Positions 6,649 through 47,853 of a stretch of 64,000 bases of DNA are shown here, in pieces. The notes beneath the pieces were generated by a model. The model saw only the letters and a program-made list of their open reading frames with translations, ran no database searches and had not been told where the DNA came from. Made by a program: the position numbers and the translations under genes. The stretch comes from an uncultured Planctomycetia bacterium (GTDB lineage Bacteria > Omnitrophota > Gorgyraeia > CAYWPX01): positions 9,524-73,523 of the forward strand of contig CAYWPX010000005.1 in the NCBI GenBank assembly GCA_964460615.1. The letters are read 5' to 3'. Numbering within the stretch: position 1 is the first letter of the stretch; every line of letters starts with the position of its first letter.

Positions 6649-6649
6649 A

Positions 6650-6827
6650 TCAGTGGTTATGAGTTATGAGTTGGGAGTAAGAGATTGCTCAAGGGTCTAG
6701 GGGATAGGGTCTAGGGAAGAGAAAAAACGCTTCAGGTTACAAGCTTTTCCTCAGTTTAAACTTCGGGCTACGCAGGTTACAAGAAGAAGGTGTAGAAGAA
6801 CACAAGAACACATGTCACAGGTAAATA
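6650..6827. repeat. Mosaic intergenic repeat, composite part: (GTTATGA)x2, (GGGTCTAGG)x2, GCTTCAGGTTACAAG, CACAAGAACACATGTCACAGG modules
   Basis: Short tandem heptamer/nonamer iterations. Modules shared with the family-A and family-B copies elsewhere. Confidence 0.6.
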
Positions 6828-6946
6828 AGCTCATAGCTCATGGCTCATAGAAAAAGATAAGAGAAGCTTCAGGCCGCAAGCCACAGGCTACAGGTAAAAG
6901 ATTGAACCAAAAACGCCGTACCCCGTACGCCGTACTAAAAAAATAG
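6828..6946. repeat. Intergenic repeat family A, copy 1: (AGCTCAT)x3 - GCTTCAGGCCGCAAG - (CCACAGG,CTACAGG) - (CCGTACN)x3
   Basis: ~90% identical to 16946-17067. Clear 7-nt periodicity. Confidence 0.8.
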
Positions 6947-6976
6947 CTTATACAAAAATAAAAAGAAAGGCAGAAT

Positions 6977-9418: not shown

Positions 9419-9448
9419 GAAATAGTTCATAGACATTGGAGCGCCAAG

Positions 9449-9582
9449 ACACAACGTCACAAGTTTAAAGAAGAAGAATTTGCTTGTGCTCTTGTGTCAT
9501 TGTGCTCATGTGTCAATAAATGCTGGTAACTGGTGCTCTGGCGATTGGTGCACTGGTAACAGCAATACCGGTACCCTGATGA
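9449..9582. repeat. Intergenic repeat family B, diverged copy 3
   Basis: Shares GTCACAAGTTTAAAG...GCTTGTGCTCTTGTG...ACAGCAATACCGGTACCCTG with the copies at 10984 and 13153. Confidence 0.6.
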
Positions 9583-9750
9583 CTTGCGTAGCCCCGAGGT
9601 TTCAACCAAAGGATAGCTGGTTCACTTTTTACGCTGAATGCTGATGACTAAAAACTTCCACCACAAACCGTTGGCGGGCGGGCATAGCTGATAGTTGGGG
9701 GTTCTAACTAAATAACATTTCCTATATTATTTATACAACAGGAGAAAGAA

Positions 9751-10968: not shown

Positions 10969-10983
10969 AATTACAGCCTCAGG

Positions 10984-11103
10984 CCTGCCAGCAAAGCTGG
11001 GGAGGTTACAAGAAGAAAGGGCAAAAGAGCACAAGAACACACGTCACCAGTTTAAAGCTTTTGCTGGTGCTCTGGTGACAGCAATACCGGTACTCTGGTG
11101 ATC
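10984..11103. repeat. Intergenic repeat family B, copy 1 (CCAGCAAAGCTGG palindrome; GTCACCAG-TTTAAAGCTTTTG-CTGGTGCTCTGGTGAC nested hairpin)
   Basis: Direct repeat of 13153-13309 (~80% identity). Nested inverted repeats read directly. Confidence 0.8.
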
Positions 11104-11130
11104 ATTGTACTCTTCTAGTTGCAAATTAAC

Positions 11131-11230
11131 TGATAGCTGAAACCTGCCTGCCAGCAGGCAGGGCTGATGGCTGATAGCTCATAGTAAAAAAACAAATAGC
11201 GATTAGCCAATTGGGCGAATAGGCGATTAG
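11131..11230. repeat. Intergenic module: CTGATAGCTGA - perfect palindrome CCTGCCTGCCAGCAGGCAGG - GCTGATGGCTGATAGCTCATAG - GCGATTAG x2 around the CCAATTGG palindrome
   Basis: Read directly. Shares AGCTGAT-type heptamers with the family-A tail. Confidence 0.6.
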
Positions 11231-11258
11231 GTAAAAATTTAAAAGGAATAAGAAAAGC

Positions 11259-13121: not shown

Positions 13122-13152
13122 CGCCACATGCCACAAGCGCCAGGTCACAGGT

Positions 13153-13309
13153 CTGCCAGCAAAGCTGGCGAGGTTACAAGAAAAAAGTACGAAGGAACAC
13201 AAGAGCACACGTTACCAGTTTAAAGCTTTTACTTGTGTTCTTGTGACTTATGCTCTGGCAACAGCAATACTTGTGCTCTGGAAACATCAATACTTGTACT
13301 CTGGTGATC
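13153..13309. repeat. Intergenic repeat family B, copy 2 (internal duplication of the ACAGCAATAC-TTGTRCTCTGG unit)
   Basis: Alignment by eye with 10984-11103. Confidence 0.8.
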
Positions 13310-13362
13310 TGTGTAAGCCTGATTGAAGAGTACGATTGACAGAACAAAAAAAGGAGGAAATA

Positions 13363-13575
13363 ATGGCAAAATACGCACTATCAAGAAGAAAAGCGATCAG
13401 CCGCGCTCAGATGGGCAAAAATAATTCCTTTTATGGCAGAAAACATTCCAAAGAAACTCTTAAAAAGCTTTCCGCCGCCACCAAAGGAAAAAATAATCCC
13501 ATGTTCGGCAAACACCATTCCGTTGCGGCAAAACGAAAAATGAGACTTGCCAGACTACGAACAATTGGGAAATAG
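13363..13575 (+). CDS. Stand-alone protein with two NUMOD3 DNA-binding repeats (70 aa)
   Basis: Two tandem motifs, GKNNSFYGRKHSKETLKKLSAATKG and GKNNPMFGKHHSVAAKRKM, matching the NUMOD3 module of GIY-YIG/HNH homing endonucleases. No nuclease domain. AGGAGG RBS puts the start at 13363. Confidence 0.55.
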   Translation: MAKYALSRRKAISRAQMGKNNSFYGRKHSKETLKKLSAATKGKNNPMFGKHHSVAAKRKMRLARLRTIGK

Positions 13576-13611: not shown

Positions 13612-14622
13612 ATGGTTAAAACTAAGATAATAGCTACTCTCGGGCCGGCGTCATCTCGTGAAACAACGATAAGAAAAATGATGCTTGCCGGGATGGATGT
13701 TGTTAGATTTAATTTTTCTCACGCTAACACGGATGAACTACTGAGCAGGATCAGCATTATCAATAAACTGAACTCAAAATACCACAGGCATATTAGATTC
13801 CTCGGCGACTTACAAGGCCATCGCATACGAATAGGCTCTCTTCATAAGCCAATCCTTCTTATTAAACACAGAATCATATATCTTACTCAAAAAAATATTA
13901 TTGGAACCGATATTTTGGTCCCTTTTGATTATAAAGGACCTCTTGATAGTATTAAAACTGGCCATCACATTTTCATTGATGACGGGAATATCTCTCTTCA
14001 GGTAACAGGCCGGTCAAAAGATAAATTAAAAACAAAGGTAATTGTCGGAGGCCTGCTCAAAGAACATAAAGGCGTAAATATCCCTGATGCAAAACTCAAA
14101 TTCGACGGACTAAACATGAAAGATATCATTGATGCTGGGTTTTGTCAGGCCAATGGCGTAGATTATGTTGCGCAGTCATTTGTGCGGACAAAAAATGACA
14201 TTGACAGAGTTAGGGCGCTTTTTAATGAAGACTCTGGCATTAAAATAATTGCTAAGATCGAAAATAGAGACGGGATCAATAATATAGACAGCATTATTAA
14301 GGCATCCGACGGGATAATGATAGCGAGAGGGGATATGGGGGTATCAATACCTATATATGAAATCCCTATAATTCAAAAAATGATCATCAAAAAATGTAAT
14401 AAGTCGGGCAAATTTGTTATCACTGCCACCCAAATGCTCGAAAGCATGACCGAAAATCTTCGCCCTACACGTGCCGAGGTAACAGATGTAGCCAATGCCA
14501 TAATAGATGGCGCTGACTTTGTTATGCTTTCAGGAGAATCTGCCGTTGGTAAATATCCGTCCGAAACAATCACGATGATGAACAATATAATAAAATATAC
14601 TGAAAAATTTTTAAAACAATAG
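13612..14622 (+). CDS. Pyruvate kinase lacking the C-terminal (allosteric) domain
   Basis: Matches the PK barrel and B domain ([54 protein letters not shown]). Ends where the A domain ends, at 336 aa. Confidence 0.7.
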
Positions 14623-14640
14623 AAGACTTTTAAAAATTAC

Positions 14641-15564
14641 ATGATAAATAAAATATTGGAAAAATTTTCGCGCCTTCTGGTTTTATGGGTAATATTAGCA
14701 GCTGGGATAGGATATATATATCCATATGTACTTACACCGCTCAAACCCTTTACTGACTGGCTATTTGCCTTTACCATGTTTGGTATAGGATGTCTCCTAT
14801 CGACAAAAGATTTTAAGCCTATAATTGAAAAACCAAAACTAATTTTTCTTGGTACTGCGGCACAATTTATTATAATGCCTATTTTGGCTTTTCTTATAAT
14901 AAAGTTTTTAAACGTCCCGCCGGTTTTGGCGATCGGACTTATATTAGCAGCGGCAGTCCCTGATGCTATGGCTGCGGGAGTAATGTCGTACCTGGCTGAA
15001 GCGGATGTGGCGTTTTCAGTAGCACTCACTACGGCTACCACTCTAATTTCACCAATCGTTACACCGGCTTTAACATACTTCTTAGGTAGGGAATACATAC
15101 CCATACAATTCTGGCCGATGGTATTAAGCATAATGCAGATGGTAATAATACCTCTTTTATTAGGGTTGTGGGTACAGCATAGATTCCATAAGATAACCTC
15201 AAAAATTAAGCCTGTTTTTCCGGCAATATCGACACTTTTTATCGCTTTTATCTGCGGCTTAGTTGTCGCGCTTAATAAAATGACCCTTAGCAGGATAACA
15301 ATAGTTATTTTTATAGCAGTTGTTCTCTTGAATATTTTTGGACTTATTTTAGGTTACTTGACAGGAAAGGGTTTTGGATTTAATCTTGCCCAGCGCAGGA
15401 CGCTTGCTATAAATGTAGGCATGCAAAATGCGGGCATGGGGGCGGTACTTGCCATAAAACACATATCAAGCGAAGCTGCAATACCAAATGCGCTTTTTGC
15501 AACTTGGTGTATCATTTCTGCTGCCATACTGGCAGAAATTTGGAGCGCCAAAAAACATATATAA
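14641..15564 (+). CDS. Bile acid:sodium symporter (BASS) family transporter
   Basis: Polytopic 307-aa protein with BASS-like organisation. Confidence 0.6.
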   Translation: MINKILEKFSRLLVLWVILAAGIGYIYPYVLTPLKPFTDWLFAFTMFGIGCLLSTKDFKPIIEKPKLIFLGTAAQFIIMPILAFLIIKFLNVPPVLAIGLILAAAVPDAMAAGVMSYLAEADVAFSVALTTATTLISPIVTPALTYFLGREYIPIQFWPMVLSIMQMVIIPLLLGLWVQHRFHKITSKIKPVFPAISTLFIAFICGLVVALNKMTLSRITIVIFIAVVLLNIFGLILGYLTGKGFGFNLAQRRTLAINVGMQNAGMGAVLAIKHISSEAAIPNALFATWCIISAAILAEIWSAKKHI

Positions 15565-16940: not shown

Positions 16941-16945
16941 AACTT

Positions 16946-17097
16946 AGCTCATGGCTCATGGCTCATAGAAAAAGATAGGAGAAGCTTCAGGCCGCAAGTC
17001 ACAGGCTACAGGTAAAAGATTGGACCAAAAACGCCGTACTCCGTACGCCGTACTAAAAGAAAAATAGCTGATGGCTGAAAGCTGATAGCTGGTAGCT
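16946..17097. repeat. Intergenic repeat family A, copy 2, with a heptamer tail (AGCTGAT,GGCTGAA,AGCTGAT,AGCTGGT)
   Basis: Near-identical to 6828-6946. The tail module recurs at 3728, 9683 and 11133-11175. Confidence 0.8.
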
Positions 17098-17119
17098 AAT
17101 ACAGTCAACGCATAATATT

Positions 17120-22903: not shown

Positions 22904-22952
22904 AATAGCGAATGGCAAACAGCCAATAGCTAAAAATACAAAAACAATAAAT

Positions 22953-22988
22953 AACCCCTTCAAGCAATTGGAGGGGTTATTTTATTAC
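22953..22988 (+). terminator. Rho-independent terminator after groEL
   Basis: Hairpin CCCCTTCAA-gcaa-TTGGAGGGG followed by TTATTTTATT. Confidence 0.6.
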
Positions 22989-27779: not shown

Positions 27780-27819
27780 AATATAGAGTACTTGACAATT
27801 TGCTTGGACTCCTTAAAAA

Positions 27820-27850
27820 AAGCGGATGAATAATCTTCCTCCGCTTTTTT
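27820..27850 (+). terminator. Rho-independent terminator
   Basis: AGCGGATGAA-taatc-TTCCTCCGCT stem followed by TTTTTT. Confidence 0.6.
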
Positions 27851-37641: not shown

Positions 37642-39594
37642 ATGCAAATATTCAAATATTTTCAGGATAAGGCATATATAATCAATCAGCTGCCAATTTT
37701 TTCTGATTTAAGCGATGATGAGAAGAAAATGGTAGCTGAATTATGCCAATTTTCTGAATATAAAAAAAATGAACTTATTTATAAGCAATCAAGCCCGCCT
37801 GACAAATTCTATCTCATTATAACCGGAAGGGTCGAGGTTTTCTCTTTTTCGAAAAACGGAAAAGAGGAACCTCTTGAATATTTAAGAAGAGGACAATTTT
37901 TCGGTATTATTTCACTCTTAATAGGCGAACCGCATTCTGTAAGCGCAAAGGCAATAAATGATTCTGTAATACTGACGATAGAAAAAGATAATTTTGATCT
38001 TATCCTTAAAAAAATACCCGGACTTTCTTTCTATTTCAGCCAATACTTATCAAGAAGATTAAAAAGAAAAGACCTTCATCCGAAATCTGTTTTTGAAAGC
38101 ACTATAATTGCGGTCTTTTCGCAAGATAGGCTTACCGGCAAAACTCTCTATTCGGTGAACCTGGCTCTCAGCCTTATCAAAGAATCCAACAAAAAGGTCA
38201 TCCTTGTCGATATGAGCCCTCAGGGGAATAAGATCTTTTCTATGCTCGGAGAACCCGCTCCTAAAGCCATAAATTTAAACAACAGCTTCTTTGATGAAAA
38301 AGCCATTAAAGAAAACCGAATATATCATAAGCTGGGAATCGATATATTAGGAATAGAATACTCTGAGCTTAAAAGCGAAGAGTCTTTTAAGATAGGGGCT
38401 CTCTTAAGCCTTTTGACAAACGAGTACCACTATATCATTCTTGATCTGCCCCATATTATCGATTCTACAATCTCAAAAACATTAGCACAATCTGATCTTA
38501 TACATATCATTACTGTTGCCGAAGAAGAATACCTCAAAAAAACCAATTCTATTATTAAAGAATTCAAAGAAAACCTGAAATCAAAAAGTGAGGATATCAA
38601 GGTAATAGTAAATGAATACGAACTTAAAAAATCTTTACCGCATTCAAAAAGGGCCGAAATACTTGGGCATCAGATTTACGCGACTCTCCCTGATATAGAG
38701 CTTCATCTTAGCTTCGACAAAGAAAAAATTGTTTTAGACTACCCGGAATCATCTTACGCAAAAGCTATTCGACGCATAGCCAGAGACATAAGCCATGTTT
38801 TGATCGGATTGGCACTGGGTTGCGGCGGAGCCATGGGATTAGCTGACATAGGAATACTAAAAGTCTTTGAAAGGGAAAAGATCCCCATTGATATGATCTC
38901 CGGGACAAGCATAGGAGCTATAATTGCGGGTTTCTGGGCGGCCGGATTCAATTCAAAAGACTTGGAGAACATATTTAGAAAACAGACCGGAAAATTTTCT
39001 ATGTTTGGGTTGATCGATCTTGTTTACCCTAAAAGCGGTTTCATAAAAGGCAAAAAAATTGAAAATTTTCTTAAAAAATACCTGGGTACCAAAACCTTTT
39101 ACGATACAAAATTGCCTCTCAAGATCATCGCTTGTGATTTAGTGAACCGCCAGGAAGTTGTACTAGACAAGGGAAGCCTCACTAGCGCAATACGCGCCAG
39201 CATAGCAATCCCGGGAGTAATACAACCTCTGGAGCTGGATGGAAGAATACTTGTTGACGGAGGGATCGTAAATCCGGTGCCGACAGATGTCCTGATCCAG
39301 TCAGGAGCCAGTAAGATAATATCCGTCAATTCACTTCCTGGTCCTGTAGCTAGTAAAAATCTCAGAAAAATTCGTTTTAAAGCGGGAATTTTTGACACGA
39401 TTGTGATCAGTATCCAGGCAACTGAATTCATTATAGGGGAAAGAAGTTGCGAAGATTCCGATATAGCTCTTAGGCCAATCCTTGATGAAGTTGAATGGTT
39501 TGAATTTAGCGAGATCGATAGGCTTATAAAACTTGGCGAAGAGACCGCAGAACAATTCCTTCCTCAAATTAGGCAGTTAAGCTTGGACCAATAA
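37642..39594 (+). CDS. Three-domain protein: N-terminal cyclic-nucleotide-binding (CAP-type) domain, middle degenerate ParA/MinD-like domain, C-terminal patatin-like phospholipase (NTE/RssA-like)
   Basis: cNMP domain (GRVEVFSF...RRGQFFGIISLL...SAKAIND). Middle region has a degenerate Walker-A-like segment SQDRLTGKTLYSVNLALSL. Patatin motifs GCGGAMGLADIG (oxyanion), GTSIG (GxSxG) and DGG. Confidence 0.7.
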   Translation: MQIFKYFQDKAYIINQLPIFSDLSDDEKKMVAELCQFSEYKKNELIYKQSSPPDKFYLIITGRVEVFSFSKNGKEEPLEYLRRGQFFGIISLLIGEPHSVSAKAINDSVILTIEKDNFDLILKKIPGLSFYFSQYLSRRLKRKDLHPKSVFESTIIAVFSQDRLTGKTLYSVNLALSLIKESNKKVILVDMSPQGNKIFSMLGEPAPKAINLNNSFFDEKAIKENRIYHKLGIDILGIEYSELKSEESFKIGALLSLLTNEYHYIILDLPHIIDSTISKTLAQSDLIHIITVAEEEYLKKTNSIIKEFKENLKSKSEDIKVIVNEYELKKSLPHSKRAEILGHQIYATLPDIELHLSFDKEKIVLDYPESSYAKAIRRIARDISHVLIGLALGCGGAMGLADIGILKVFEREKIPIDMISGTSIGAIIAGFWAAGFNSKDLENIFRKQTGKFSMFGLIDLVYPKSGFIKGKKIENFLKKYLGTKTFYDTKLPLKIIACDLVNRQEVVLDKGSLTSAIRASIAIPGVIQPLELDGRILVDGGIVNPVPTDVLIQSGASKIISVNSLPGPVASKNLRKIRFKAGIFDTIVISIQATEFIIGERSCEDSDIALRPILDEVEWFEFSEIDRLIKLGEETAEQFLPQIRQLSLDQ

Positions 39595-39685: not shown

Positions 39686-40186
39686 ATGATGATATTATTT
39701 ATAGAATTATTGGTTATTCTGGTTTTAATGCTCATCTGGTTTTCGGTGAGTAGGGAGGAATCCCAAAAAATCAAAGATTCAATCTCCAAGGCTACTCTCA
39801 GGGAAATATGGGAAGGTACTGAAAGAAGGAGGTCTTTCAGATTGCCCGTATCTTTAGAAGTGCGGTATGTTATCGAGAAAAAAATACAAGCCAGTTTAAA
39901 AAGCAGGAGTAAAAATATTTCATCCGGCGGGATAATGCTTGAAGCTGAAGAGAAAATTTATCCGGGCACTCCGCTTAAATTAGAGATCATTCTGCTGGAT
40001 AATAAACCCCCTATCCAGACTGAAGCAGAGGTTATTTGGGTAGATGAAGCTAATGAATCCGATAATATCGAAAAAAGACACTTTAATATCGGAGCAAAGT
40101 TTATTTATTTAAATAATGCCAGCCTTAAACGCATAGATGAGTATGTAAAACAAAAAAGGGAAGATTCCAATGAAAGAGAGACGTAA
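39686..40186 (+). CDS. Membrane-anchored PilZ-domain protein
   Basis: TM helix, then RRSFRLPVSLEV (RxxxR) and NISSGGI (DxSxxG-like). Confidence 0.65.
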   Translation: MMILFIELLVILVLMLIWFSVSREESQKIKDSISKATLREIWEGTERRRSFRLPVSLEVRYVIEKKIQASLKSRSKNISSGGIMLEAEEKIYPGTPLKLEIILLDNKPPIQTEAEVIWVDEANESDNIEKRHFNIGAKFIYLNNASLKRIDEYVKQKREDSNERET

Positions 40187-40712
40187 ATTTAAACGTTTAG
40201 CCGTAGAAATACCCATTCAGTTGGAACCGGTTTTAAACAAAAAACAAGCTTCAACCACTGCGTATCTATTCAATTCAAAAAATATTGCTGAAGCGGGAAT
40301 GTTCCTTCATACTCCTATTAAATATAAAAAAAATCAGGCACTCGATTTTCTCATTAAACTTAGGAATGATTCTAACCCAATTCATCTGATAGGAAAAATT
40401 GTCTGGATAGCCAATAAAAAGGACCACCCATATCTCTATCCGGGAATTGGCATTAAATTCTCATTGATCAATGAGAATGATAAAAAAAGATTAAAAAAGT
40501 TCTTAAAGAGCCGCTTAGCCAGCTACAAAGATGCCAGAGAAATGAAGGATATGTACCTAAAACTAAAGAAAATGGCCGCAAGGCTTATTTCTTTGGAGGA
40601 AAAACATCCCACCGCATCTCAGTTTAAAATAATTATCGATAAGGCGATTTCGGAGATCGACAATGCCGCTCACACAATAGACAGAGAAATTATGGAGATC
40701 AAGAAGCTCTAA
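40170..40712 (+). CDS. PilZ-domain protein with C-terminal helical extension
   Basis: RRKFKRLAVEIP and NIAEAGM motifs. 17-nt overlap with the upstream gene. Confidence 0.65.
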   Translation: MKERRKFKRLAVEIPIQLEPVLNKKQASTTAYLFNSKNIAEAGMFLHTPIKYKKNQALDFLIKLRNDSNPIHLIGKIVWIANKKDHPYLYPGIGIKFSLINENDKKRLKKFLKSRLASYKDAREMKDMYLKLKKMAARLISLEEKHPTASQFKIIIDKAISEIDNAAHTIDREIMEIKKL

Positions 40713-43591: not shown

Positions 43592-44101
43592 ATGAGTTTT
43601 GAATTATTAGGGTATTATTTAGTTTTTTGCAGTATTGTAATATTCGGTCTGGCAGTCTACTTTGTAATTATTAAATTTAAAAGGTTAACTGAAGACATTA
43701 ACCTGTATGGTAATCTTGCAGGAAATAGTTTTAAAAACCCTGATAAAAAAATTTTTAAAGAACGGCGTGTTTTTGAAAGATTAGGAATAGAGTTAGATGC
43801 TATCTTAAATATCCCGGAACAGAAAAATGTCTTTGAAGCTCAAACAAAAGACATAAGTTCGAGAGGGGTAGGGGTAAAATCTAGGATTTTCTTTCCTGAA
43901 AAAACTCATGTCGAAATAAACCTTATATTATCAAAAACCGACCAATTCGTAACCAAGGGAATGGTTGTTTGGTCTAAGGAAAATTATGATGGAATAAGTA
44001 ACCTTGGGATTAAATTTGATAATTTACTAACGAATGAAATGATCAGAGTTTATAAATACTTTGATGAACTAAAAAATTCAAATTCTAAATTAATAGGTTA
44101 A
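43592..44101 (+). CDS. Membrane-anchored PilZ-domain protein
   Basis: TM helix, then RRVFERLGIELD and DISSRGVGV motifs. Confidence 0.65.
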   Translation: MSFELLGYYLVFCSIVIFGLAVYFVIIKFKRLTEDINLYGNLAGNSFKNPDKKIFKERRVFERLGIELDAILNIPEQKNVFEAQTKDISSRGVGVKSRIFFPEKTHVEINLILSKTDQFVTKGMVVWSKENYDGISNLGIKFDNLLTNEMIRVYKYFDELKNSNSKLIG

Positions 44102-46165: not shown

Positions 46166-46203
46166 GCCATCTAAATCTTAACAAGATTTAGATGGCTTTT
46201 TTT
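46166..46203 (+). terminator. Rho-independent terminator
   Basis: Perfect hairpin GCCATCTAAATCTT-aaca-AGATTTAGATGGC followed by TTTTTTT. Confidence 0.7.
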
Positions 46204-46526: not shown

Positions 46527-46542
46527 TATCTTGATTAAATCA

Positions 46543-46585
46543 ATACCTTTGTGTATTTACCTTAATACACAAAGGTATTTTTTTA
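46543..46585 (+). terminator. Rho-independent terminator after csp
   Basis: ATACCTTTGTGTATT-tacctta-AATACACAAAGGTAT followed by TTTTTTT. Confidence 0.7.
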
Positions 46586-46674
46586 ACATGTTATTTAGAT
46601 TTTAATTTTATCATTGCGAAATTATTTATTTTGAGTTAAAATACTATAAATAAAACTAAAGGGGGTGAATATTA

Positions 46675-47049: not shown

Positions 47050-47059
47050 TATTTACTCA

Positions 47060-47109
47060 AAAAAAGAGCCATATTGTGCTATGGATATATACATTATGGC
47101 TCTTTTTTT
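47060..47109 (+). terminator. Rho-independent terminator
   Basis: AAAAAAGAGCCAT...ATGGCTCTTTTTTT hairpin. It lies inside the 5' part of track ORF 47074, so I moved that gene's start to 47122. Confidence 0.55.
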
Positions 47110-47121
47110 AGGCTAAAACAA

Positions 47122-47853
47122 ATGAACTTAAATGTCAGGGAAATAGGAAGAATAAGTATTATTGATATTGAAGGCCAGATAGATATCAACTCTTCTGAAT
47201 TAGTTGAAACTGTAGGCTGGTTAGTTAAAAATGATAAGGTCAGCATTATATGTAACCTTGAAAAAGTTGAATTAGTTGATTACAGCGGGTTATCGATTTT
47301 TGCAATAATTTTCAAGAATGTATCAAACCATGGCGGGCACTTAAAATTCTGCAATGTTCCTCTCCATATTTTAGAGCTTTTTAGGGTGGTCCAATTAGAC
47401 TCGATATTTACCTTTTATAACAGCGAAGATGCTGCTATCAAAAGCTTTATAATACCCTCAGAAATTGATAAAGCCACCCTTAGAAGGCGTTTCCAAAGGG
47501 CTTATGTTCAGATAAATGTAAAATACAGGATAATAAGCAATAACTCCGAAACCAGCTATTCCCACCCGGGCAAGATACTTAATATAGGCGGCGAAGGAAT
47601 GTATATTTATACCCAGGAAATTTTTCCTATAGGAACCAGACTTGAACTCGAAGTGGATTTAGGCCCTCACAATAAACCTGCTATTATAAATGGTTTTGTT
47701 GTTTGGATCGCCGATAAAGAGATCCAACCGCACTCCTATCCAGGGATGGGGGTCCAATTTGCTAAATTAAACGACAATATACAAAAAAATATTATTGATT
47801 TCATAAACAAACATGTTACCCATAGAAGCGGACTTTACGACAATTTGTTATAA
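47122..47853 (+). CDS. STAS (anti-sigma-factor antagonist-like) domain fused to a C-terminal PilZ domain
   Basis: N-terminal SpoIIAA-like STAS pattern (ISIIDIEGQIDINSS...VELVDYSGLSIFAIIFKN...LKFCNVPLHILELFRVVQLDSIF). C-terminal RRRFQRAYVQIN and NIGGEGMYI PilZ motifs. Confidence 0.55.
   Translation: MNLNVREIGRISIIDIEGQIDINSSELVETVGWLVKNDKVSIICNLEKVELVDYSGLSIFAIIFKNVSNHGGHLKFCNVPLHILELFRVVQLDSIFTFYNSEDAAIKSFIIPSEIDKATLRRRFQRAYVQINVKYRIISNNSETSYSHPGKILNIGGEGMYIYTQEIFPIGTRLELEVDLGPHNKPAIINGFVVWIADKEIQPHSYPGMGVQFAKLNDNIQKNIIDFINKHVTHRSGLYDNLL

Follow-up and report, generated by a model that had tools for sequence, protein, structure and literature searches.

Intergenic stem-loops with periodic arms between co-directional genes of an Omnitrophota genome

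Genomic setting

The window, which is the whole stretch of 64,000 nucleotides analysed here, is a piece of ordinary chromosome and encodes ZnuABC, a patatin-like lipase, pyruvate kinase, GroEL, DnaE, EPSP synthase and PFOR. Three copies of a hairpin-forming repeat lie in its spacers, all of them in + orientation between genes of the + strand, and the same holds for all repeat modules described below. The hairpins begin 38-90 nt past the upstream stop codon. Copy 2 is directly followed by the gene of a small NUMOD3 DNA-binding protein and lies just upstream of a strong sigma-70-like promoter for the next gene (TTGACA-17-AATAAT, 13336-13364). Pfam domains of transposases, integrases, RAYTs or reverse transcriptases were not matched by any of the 56 window ORFs scanned, several of which had no match at all, and no Y1 transposase was found among these ORFs, which covered lengths from 150 aa upwards. 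Similarity of the window to plasmids or phages was not found either. At the gathering score, Rfam gave no match in the window or in the related contigs L058-L060; at E<=1, the sole match was a plant miRNA hairpin, which scored 25 bits where the gathering score is 62.

The homologues of the patatin and of the pyruvate kinase are annotated as Candidatus Omnitrophota, with the best ones 73-75% identical. Judged by these proteins, the host is an Omnitrophota MAG without a close relative in the collections searched. The source genome was read over 69 kb (the window and L057), which hold three copies of the repeat; the 5.2 kb added to the source genome by a Logan contig carry none. The window sequence was also assembled in Logan run SRR12487046. 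In the contigs with the patatin and pyruvate kinase homologues, synteny is lost and the spacers are free of word arrays, and no such arrays were found in Omnitrophota contigs with a patatin about 70% identical to that of the window. The orthologous spacers compared below are thus those of other Omnitrophota contigs.

Anatomy of the three copies

The hairpin of copy 1 belongs to a small family of intergenic stem-loops that is specific to this genome. Each member consists of a 5' tandem array of 7-8-nt words (CACAAG, CACACG or CACCAG), an A/T-rich loop starting with TTTAAAG and, on the 3' side, tandem words that are the reverse complements (CTGGTG or CTTGTG). Because both arms are periodic, several pairing registers are possible. 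Generic scans for exact 5-mer dyads with a period or for strict ungapped hairpins were too stringent for such degenerate arrays, and folding z-scores and autocorrelation were used in their place.

Copy 1 (11043-11079, + strand) reads GTCACCAG-TTTAAAGCTTTTG-CTGGTG-CT-CTGGTGAC. The distal CTGGTGAC forms 8 bp with GTCACCAG, and the loop starts with TTTAAAG and contains a 3-bp mini-stem. The fold has an MFE of -16.1 kcal/mol with a z-score of -3.94, and none of 200 shuffles was as good. The 5' word array (11026-11050, +) holds CACAAG at 11030, CACACG at 11038 and CACCAG at 11045, spaced by 8 and then 7 nt. In the 3' word array (11064-11102, +), CTGGTG occurs at 11064, 11072 and 11095, and one 23-nt unit, AGCAATACCGGTACTCTGGTGAT, belongs to the repeat family D2. 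An alternative pairing joins 11044-11066 with 11079-11101 (inverted repeat I1, 23 nt, 74% complementary). Over the region 11022-11110, the lag-8 autocorrelation was significant with p=0.0005.

In copy 2, the segment homologous to this hairpin (13211-13247, +) reads GTTACCAG-TTTAAAGCTTTTA-CTTGTG-TT-CTTGTGAC. The hairpin itself is formed in a shifted register (13196-13247, +; z -4.33), with a stem of 12 bp in which the upstream words CACAAGAGCACA, of the CACAAG type, pair with UGUGUUCUUGUG. Its 3' array (13247-13315, +) was detected by TRF with period 23, 2.6 copies and 88% matches, belongs to family D2 as well and mixes the words CTTGTG, CTGGCA, CTGGAA, CTTGTA and CTGGTG.

For copy 3, the segment 9456-9498 (+; GTCACAAG-TTTAAAGAAGAAGAATTTG-CTTGTG-CT-CTTGTGTC) is only the inner part of an extended hairpin at 9438-9516 (+), which has a z-score of -2.97 and corresponds to an inverted repeat of 38 nt with 71% complementarity. 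Three nested helices make it up, namely GAGCGC/GUGCUC, GACACAA/UUGUGUC and CACAAGU/GCUUGUG. On the 3' side, two CTTGTG words are followed by ATTGTG, CATGTG and then five words of the CTGGTG type. The extra octamer words at 9517-9582 (+) are CTGGTA, CTGGTG, CTGGCG, TTGGTG and CTGGTA, followed by one 23-nt unit; TRF lists the octamers at 9529-9557 with period 8 and 3.8 copies.

A mosaic of repeat modules

The hairpins are embedded in larger modules. A dispersed 100-nt module (family D3; 10980-11079, +), 86% identical to 13148-13247, contains a mini-hairpin CCAGCAAAGCTGG (10988-11000), the motif GGTTACAAG, the 5' words and the hairpin. A partial fourth copy (family D4; 6767-6818, +) has the 5' module GGTTACAAGAAGAAGG...GAACACAAGAACACATGTCAC and is devoid of the TTTAAAG loop and of the 3' arm. 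It is followed by the word-array module D1 (6823-6943, +), which is built of GCTCATAG, CAGGCNN and CCGTACC heptamers and is repeated with 93% identity at 16941-17061.

Other sources of such modules were considered and rejected. A duplication of a gene together with its 3' UTR does not fit D1, the proteins upstream of its two copies being unrelated. A template and variable repeat of a DGR does not fit either: counted by eye, five transitions separate its two copies, three of A/G and two of C/T, without adenine bias. An integron attC array was discarded on the grounds of the large housekeeping genes, the lack of an integrase domain in the scanned ORFs and GGTTACAAG, which misfits the GTTRRRY core.

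The 18-nt core of the family was found three times in the window against 0.02 expected occurrences, with up to three mismatches allowed, and the pair of 3' words eight times against 0.08 expected. With both counts far above expectation, the repeat family is not due to chance. Lag-8 autocorrelation was significant in all three copies (p 0.0005-0.0015); control spacers mostly had p>0.2, and one of eight reached p=0.03. A lag-7 autocorrelation with p=0.0005 was found over the whole spacers 6649-6976 and 16941-17119, both of which contain D1.

By TRF, arrays with a period of 7-8 nt are restricted to five spacers between 6.6 and 17.1 kb. The mosaic filling these spacers (6649-6976, 9419-9750, 10969-11258, 13122-13362 and 16941-17119) includes the 100-nt module of copies 1 and 2, a 23-nt unit occurring one to three times and GCTGATAG/GCTCATAG heptamers. 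At least 10 different units were detected by TRF within 10 kb, among them GTTATGA, AGGGTCT, AGCTCAT, CCGTACC, CTTGTGCT, ACTGGTGC, GCGATTAG and ATAGCTG. Some direct arrays in these spacers have no complementary partner, namely D1, a fourfold GCGATTAG and a fivefold GCTGATAG.

Covariation between the copies

An earlier note on this DNA had compared copies 1 and 3 and had taken a compensatory change between CACCAG/CTGGTG and CACAAG/CTTGTG as covariation, the signature of a selected secondary structure. The sequences and coordinates it gave for the two copies are exact. The C>A change in the 5' arm of copy 3 is indeed matched by G>T, in both 3' words, and the TTTAAAG start of the loop is kept in all three copies.

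Preservation of the pairing does not extend to copy 2, which the note had not used. This copy has CCAG in the 5' arm and CTTG in the 3' arm and thus a C.U mismatch at the same pair; it combines the 5' state of copy 1 with the 3' state of copy 3. In the version with an 8-bp stem, copy 3 has an extra T.T mismatch. In the three-copy alignment, which is too small for R-scape, the pair reads A-U once, C-G once and unpaired once, and the observed covariation was reached by 307 of 500 shuffles for the 8-bp stem and by 321 of 500 for the 6-bp stem. The reported compensatory change is therefore real as sequence but statistically empty as covariation.

Folding of the segment as delimited in the earlier note gave a stable helix for copy 1 only (z -3.94); the homologous segments of copy 2 (13211-13247, z -0.26) and copy 3 (z +0.14) did not fold better than shuffles, and the same helix is not present in every copy. 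Significant folds of copies 2 and 3 use other registers (13196-13247 and 9438-9516). Both word variants (CACCAG and CACAAG) and their complements (CTGGTG and CTTGTG) occur within single copies, so the reported change is a swap of word variants.

The proposal of a selected structure thus loses its covariation argument, one compensated pair between two copies, while the maintenance of a hairpin is supported on other evidence, namely a significant hairpin in each of the three copies in different registers, the same design in other Omnitrophota and a folding bias towards the sense strand. The persistence of a hairpin independent of the register in three paralogous copies is evidence that the hairpin is maintained and not the sequence. 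As a caution, a "compensatory change" seen between two copies of a tandem-word repeat can be a word-variant swap or a shift of register, and covariation in such repeats needs many copies and controls for relatedness.

The same design in other Omnitrophota contigs

Collections of genome and metagenome contigs were scanned with a pattern neutral to the arms, CACAN{0,1}CGTYACNNGTTTAAAG. The source genome and close relatives are absent from these collections. The matches were chance matches in coding DNA, except for an intergenic one in L038 and possibly one in a word-rich spacer of L012. The match in L038, from another Omnitrophota lineage, carries GTCACAAGTTTAAAG, and a second contig, L058, has an identical spacer. 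It reads GTCACAC-GTCACAA-G-TTTAAAGC...-TGACGTG-GTACGTGA-GACGTGA-AACGTGA; the 5' motif and the start of the loop are as in the window, a resemblance created by the search as far as the 5' motif is concerned, since the pattern required it. Here, 5' words GTCACAC and GTCACAA face four tandem GACGTGA words, which complement an overlapping but different 5' stretch (CACGTCA, not GTCACAAG).

Orthologous spacers were compared in contigs with pairwise gene DNA identities of 82-90% (L058, L059 and L060) and of 67-74% (L060 versus L062). For the GAF-ANTAR gene and nadE, the coding sequences of L058, L059 and L060 can be aligned as far as the stop codon and again from the start codon onward, and the spacer in between is unalignable (A3). 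Each of the GAF-ANTAR>nadE spacers has words in tandem on the 5' side, then an A/T-rich loop and complementary words in tandem on the 3' side. In L059, four to five AACAGGG words in the 5' arm are opposed by CTGTTAC CGGTTAC, in L060 GTTTCAAG GTATCAAC GTATCAAG by a fourfold TTGAAAC, and in L062 GCGAGTC GCGAGTT by ACTCGTAG AACTCAAA. The spacers AsnC>aminotransferase (A4) and LemA>M48 (A5) of L059 and L060 are likewise unalignable and have the same architecture. A target of the ANTAR protein was considered and rejected: by eye, no dual hexaloop motif was found in the spacers after the GAF-ANTAR gene in L058-L062, and unrelated spacers share the architecture.

Of seven hairpins folded in L059 and L060, six had z-scores from -2.7 to -6.4, and the GS>PGI hairpin of L062 reached -6.1; the hairpins of the window are less strong than these. 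The hairpin spacers of L058-L062 are periodic by autocorrelation, mostly with p=0.0005. Other spacers in these contigs are 85-100% conserved, non-periodic and free of arrays. At GS>PGI, a hairpin of GTTTCAAG/CTTGAAAC words is common to L060 and L062. The GS>PGI spacer of L059 has no word array and has kept the seed GGGTTTCA. The direct ACGAGTT array of L061 folds into no more than a weak hairpin (z -1.15). Inside apparent operons of L058-L060, the distance from the end of the 3' arm to the next start codon is 0-5 nt.

The persistence of hairpins at the compared orthologous spacers with fully replaced sequence in these related contigs supports maintenance of the hairpin as well. Two observations count against it. 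The direct array of L061 and the partnerless arrays of the window (D1, GCGATTAG) indicate that word arrays arise without a hairpin function, and L059 is arrayless at GS>PGI, where L060 and L062 have an array.

Strand bias and possible roles

The MFE was lower on the gene-sense strand in 11 of 13 hairpins, with one tie and one loss, and in the three window copies the sense strand was favoured by 2.2-6.2 kcal/mol. Across the 13 hairpins, 38 G.U pairs were counted on the sense strand versus 14 on the antisense strand. The earlier note had left a structured RNA and a DNA cruciform side by side; the strand bias of the predicted folds favours RNA structure in the sense transcript. Folded together with their flanks, the window copies had modest z-scores (-1.5, -0.4 and -3.3) without a clear strand preference by z-score. 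Richness of the sense strand in G and T or a C>T mutation bias could also give such a bias without selection, and the comparison was made without a composition-matched null model.

We give about an even chance to the reading that a hairpin is maintained in the sense-strand RNA of co-directional gene arrays, where it influences the processing or stability of the mRNA or the formation of its 3' end, and that its arms are renewed by slippage and templated copying. Transcription of the element, its function at the RNA level and the mechanism of turnover are what we infer from patterns in the sequence. The sense RNA of the co-directional genes would fold into the hairpin 38-90 nt past the stop codon of the upstream gene, and this intercistronic or 3'-UTR structure might serve as a barrier to 3' exonucleases or as a site of RNase III-type processing, of stabilisation or of assistance to termination. 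Its arms would turn over quickly, with whole words gained or lost by strand slippage and with copying from one arm or one copy to another, so that complementarity would outlast the individual base pairs. The change from C-G to A-U would then be a swap of word variants and not a point substitution followed by compensation.

The earlier note had also named a terminator. A factor-independent transcription terminator of the upstream gene would suit a hairpin past the stop codon in all three copies, the site of copy 2 just upstream of the sigma-70-like promoter and an L059 hairpin of the same design (14579-14655) that is followed by TTTTTATTTTT. In canonical form, it is contradicted by the bases after the three window stems (AGCAATACC, TTATGCTC and ATTGTGCT), none of which is a T-run, and none of the copies was listed by the terminator scan. 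Canonical A/T-tract terminators are present elsewhere in the window (e.g., 22949-22982, 27816-27850 and 47059-47109), and because the genome has such ordinary terminators, the window hairpins are a separate class. A 3' arm 0-5 nt from the next start codon, as in the apparent operons of L058-L060, also speaks against termination. This role is considered very unlikely.

The main rival to a maintained sense-RNA hairpin is a functionless mutational by-product. Slippage would make arrays of 7-8 nt in slack intergenic DNA, and fold-back or template-switch synthesis at quasi-palindromes would copy one arm onto the other, so that complementarity and "compensatory" changes would arise without selection on RNA or DNA structure. 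Heptanucleotide repeats were described as the commonest long simple-sequence repeats in prokaryotes and were attributed to slippage (Mrazek 2007, as cited in PMC4679880). Partnerless direct arrays are common in the same spacers (D1, the fourfold GCGATTAG and the fivefold GCTGATAG), the array of L061 is direct at a site with inverted arrays in its relatives, and the 3' words of L038, complementary to CACGTCA and not to GTCACAAG, are as expected from templating by the 5' arm. The GS>PGI array of L060 seems to have grown from the local seed GGGTTTCA, which is also present in L059. A by-product is harder to reconcile with hairpins that recur at one and the same spacer, alike in size and in the position of the loop, despite a fully replaced sequence, with the retention of one word hairpin at only 67-74% coding DNA identity (L060 and L062) and with the bias of mismatches towards G.U on the sense strand. 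General intergenic decay is contradicted by the other spacers, which are 85-100% conserved and arrayless. Altogether, a by-product is possible, with a probability on the low side.

Comparison with described repeats

The window spacers carry tandem direct repeats of 5-11 nt in intergenic DNA; a single characteristic unit used genome-wide was not found in them. A direct array with a close, convergent reverse-complement array able to form a stem-loop is present in the window copies and in L058-L062. Among the described systems, the closest analogue is the convergent pairs of GGGAATC heptamer arrays in Xanthomonas (PMC4692102). Its intergenic regions contain inverted, i.e. convergent, pairs of tandem GGGAATC arrays (Rehm et al. 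2015, PMC4692102), and the type of array, single or inverted pair, is preserved between related genomes with changes in length (PMC4692102). As in Xanthomonas, intergenic tandem arrays of about 7-nt units lie near a reverse-complement array, which makes a stem-loop or a cruciform possible. Xanthomonas uses one G-rich heptamer with G-quadruplex potential genome-wide, whereas each spacer here has its own words, which are not G-rich. The units are 7-8 (up to 10) nt long here, and unlike in Xanthomonas, unrelated words were found at the compared orthologous spacers.

Heptanucleotide units are also known from the cyanobacterial STRR and from the TAACTGA repeats of Beggiatoaceae, Cyanobacteria and Bacteroidetes (MacGregor 2015, PMC4679880). 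The present arrays share with them short intergenic heptamer arrays, often near start codons without a canonical ribosome-binding site, as well as a patchy phylogenetic distribution and slippage as the supposed origin (PMC4679880). In STRR and TAACTGA repeats, a single invariant heptamer is repeated, nearly always directly, with 169 direct sets versus one indirect set in 'Maribeggiatoa' (PMC4679880), whereas a direct array is combined here with its inverted complement and many words are used.

REPs, among them GTAG- and CGTC-tagged ones, have units of 20-40 bp with stems of 8-9 bp, loops of 4-5 nt and an unpaired tag, and are present in many copies, frequently in association with a RAYT transposase (Di Nocera et al. 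2013, PMC3733652). Like REPs and BIMEs, the present family is extragenic, species-specific and palindromic, forms mosaics and lies mostly downstream of genes between co-directional ORFs, and the role proposed for REPs and BIMEs, RNA hairpins in mRNA stabilisation or termination (PMC3733652), is similar to that proposed here. Unlike REPs, it has loops of 13-19 nt, periodic arms that shift their register and three known copies, and no RAYT was seen among the scanned ORFs.

This resemblance bears on a DNA-level element, either a REP/BIME- or MITE-like mobile palindrome that a transposase recognises as folded single-stranded DNA, or a target of a DNA-binding protein in the form of iterated sites or of a cruciform. 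Such an element would explain a dispersed, genome-specific extragenic family with a BIME-like mosaic of modules and the occurrence of the 100-nt module with 86% identity in two unrelated spacers, and the NUMOD3 protein encoded directly downstream of copy 2 might be a candidate binder. In copies 1 and 3 and in L038, CGTC adjoins or overlaps the stem, which recalls the CGTC-tagged REPs (PMC3733652). In such REPs, an unpaired terminal tag (CGTC, or TGTC or CCTC) adjoins the stem. Here, CGTC is found at 11042-11045 and 9455-9458 with its GTC inside the stem, copy 2 has CGTT, and the tag is partly paired in all copies. Against the 8-9-bp stems, beginning with A-T pairs, and the 4-5-nt loops of CGTC REPs, the loops have 13, 13 and 19 nt and the stems 6-12 bp in varying registers, and a CCA tail was not found. 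On inspection, the module ends (10976/13144 and 11109/13315) have neither of the MITE features, terminal inverted repeats of 15-30 bp and target-site duplications. The 56 scanned ORFs are without a Pfam match to transposase, integrase, RAYT or reverse transcriptase, plasmid or phage similarity is lacking in the window, the words vary by spacer and genome, which misfits a single sequence-specific protein, and the G.U bias of the sense strand favours RNA. An element acting at the DNA level is thus judged unlikely.

For a hairpin in the sense RNA, processing sites offer a further comparison. RNase III processing hairpins between cistrons, for example those in the early mRNA of phage T7, are long (20-35 bp) and imperfect with regularly placed internal mismatches. 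The present structures resemble them in these respects and in their place between co-directional genes. Unlike the window hairpins, the RNase III sites described are not known to be built from tandem words.

In summary of these comparisons, inverted heptamer arrays and REP-like repeats are an already known kind, of which the window element is a variant. New are the own words of each spacer, the wholly replaced sequences of the orthologous spacers compared among related contigs and the different host phylum.

A possible class of self-renewing hairpins

A more far-reaching proposal is made only tentatively and with rather low confidence. Some Omnitrophota might possess undescribed "self-renewing" intercistronic hairpins, both arms of which are rewritten together, at a much higher rate than other intergenic DNA, and which stay fixed at the same operon junctions. 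The rewriting would occur by slippage together with fold-back templating or conversion between copies. If this is true, a sequence-independent function of the RNA would be implied, which might be RNase III processing, protection of 3' ends or translational coupling. In the last case, the upstream stop codon and the downstream start codon would be brought together at the base of the stem. Apparent covariation could then stem from a templated mutational process and not from point mutation and selection.

Should periodic-arm hairpins truly be kept at orthologous operon junctions during replacement of their sequence, they would provide a tractable case of structure conserved without sequence and an extra layer of regulation or processing in Omnitrophota, a phylum that has been little studied and is mostly uncultured. 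On the practical side, short-read assemblies would break at the word arrays, which would be well suited as strain markers.

Word arrays and terminators in the window

Word arrays, i.e. tandem short words in spacers, are not confined to the cluster at 6.6-17.1 kb, because four direct heptamer words (AATAGCG, AATGGCA, AACAGCC and AATAGCT) were found at 22904-22931, just 3' of groEL and just 5' of a canonical terminator. This terminator (22949-22982) belongs to a set of perfect hairpins of 11-23 bp flanked by A-runs and T-runs (the others at 27816-27850, 46166-46196, 46535-46586 and 47059-47109), all of which are of the canonical bidirectional type. From these five hairpins it follows that the genome uses ordinary intrinsic terminators alongside its word-array hairpins.

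Within the cluster, a 121-nt repeat with 93% identity occurs in two spacers 10 kb apart (6823-6943 and 16941-17061). Its units are the heptamers CAGGCNN and CCGTACY together with GCTCATRG, and by eye the only differences between the copies are five transitions. The proteins encoded upstream of the two copies are unrelated to each other. The HindIII site AAGCTT forms the centre of the mini-palindrome AAAGCTTT in the loops of two of the word-array hairpins, copy 1 (11043-11079) and copy 2 (13196-13247), and occurs 56 times in the 64-kb window vs about 21 times expected by a rough estimate from base composition.

Spacers and leaders in other genomes

Word-array spacers are present beyond Omnitrophota too, because one was found in an uncultured Bdellovibrionales MAG (L012, 6730-6805, minus strand). 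Here, the search motif matched by chance inside a short spacer, which is built of hexamers in tandem, about 12 words with the pattern TNNAAG (GTTTAAAG TTAAGA, further on TATAAG three times, and later TCTAAG).

In three related Omnitrophota contigs, 0-5 nt separate the hairpin 3' arm from the nadE start codon (L058 7745-7758, L059 6175-6188, L060 5643-5656). No recognisable Shine-Dalgarno sequence precedes nadE in any of the three, whereas neighbouring genes have strong ones. The base of the stem brings the stop codon of the preceding gene close to the start codon of nadE, an arrangement that hints at translational coupling.

In the GS to PGI spacer (L059 12030-12135, L060 11415-11520), two hairpins of the conventional kind differ between the two genomes by textbook compensatory changes, GTAGCTTATG...CATAAGCTAC to GTAATTTATG...CATAAATTAC in the first hairpin and CCCAGAACTAA...TTAGTTCTGGG to CCCAGCACTAA...TTGGTGCTGGG in the second. 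The type III glutamine synthetase gene is preceded by a 62-nt leader (L059 9775-9836, L060 9160-9221) that is 100% identical between these genomes, whose coding sequences share 82-90% identity. Within the leader, a small hairpin (AACCGTT...AACGGTG) comes before a strong Shine-Dalgarno sequence, and the stretch may be a conserved regulatory leader.

Genes in the window

Directly 3' of copy 2 lies a gene (13363-13575, plus strand) for a free-standing protein of 70 aa that consists of a pair of NUMOD3 DNA-binding motifs (Pfam E 4e-25). The gene has a sigma-70-like promoter (11/12, 13336-13364), and its Shine-Dalgarno sequence, AAGGAGG, is strong. NUMOD3 is usually found in homing endonucleases; a nuclease domain is absent from this protein. 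Elsewhere in the window, a signalling-gene cluster (37642-39594, 39686-40712, 43592-44101 and 47074-47853) encodes one protein that combines a cNMP-binding domain with ParA-like ATPase and patatin domains; after it come four proteins with PilZ domains, of which one is a STAS fusion.
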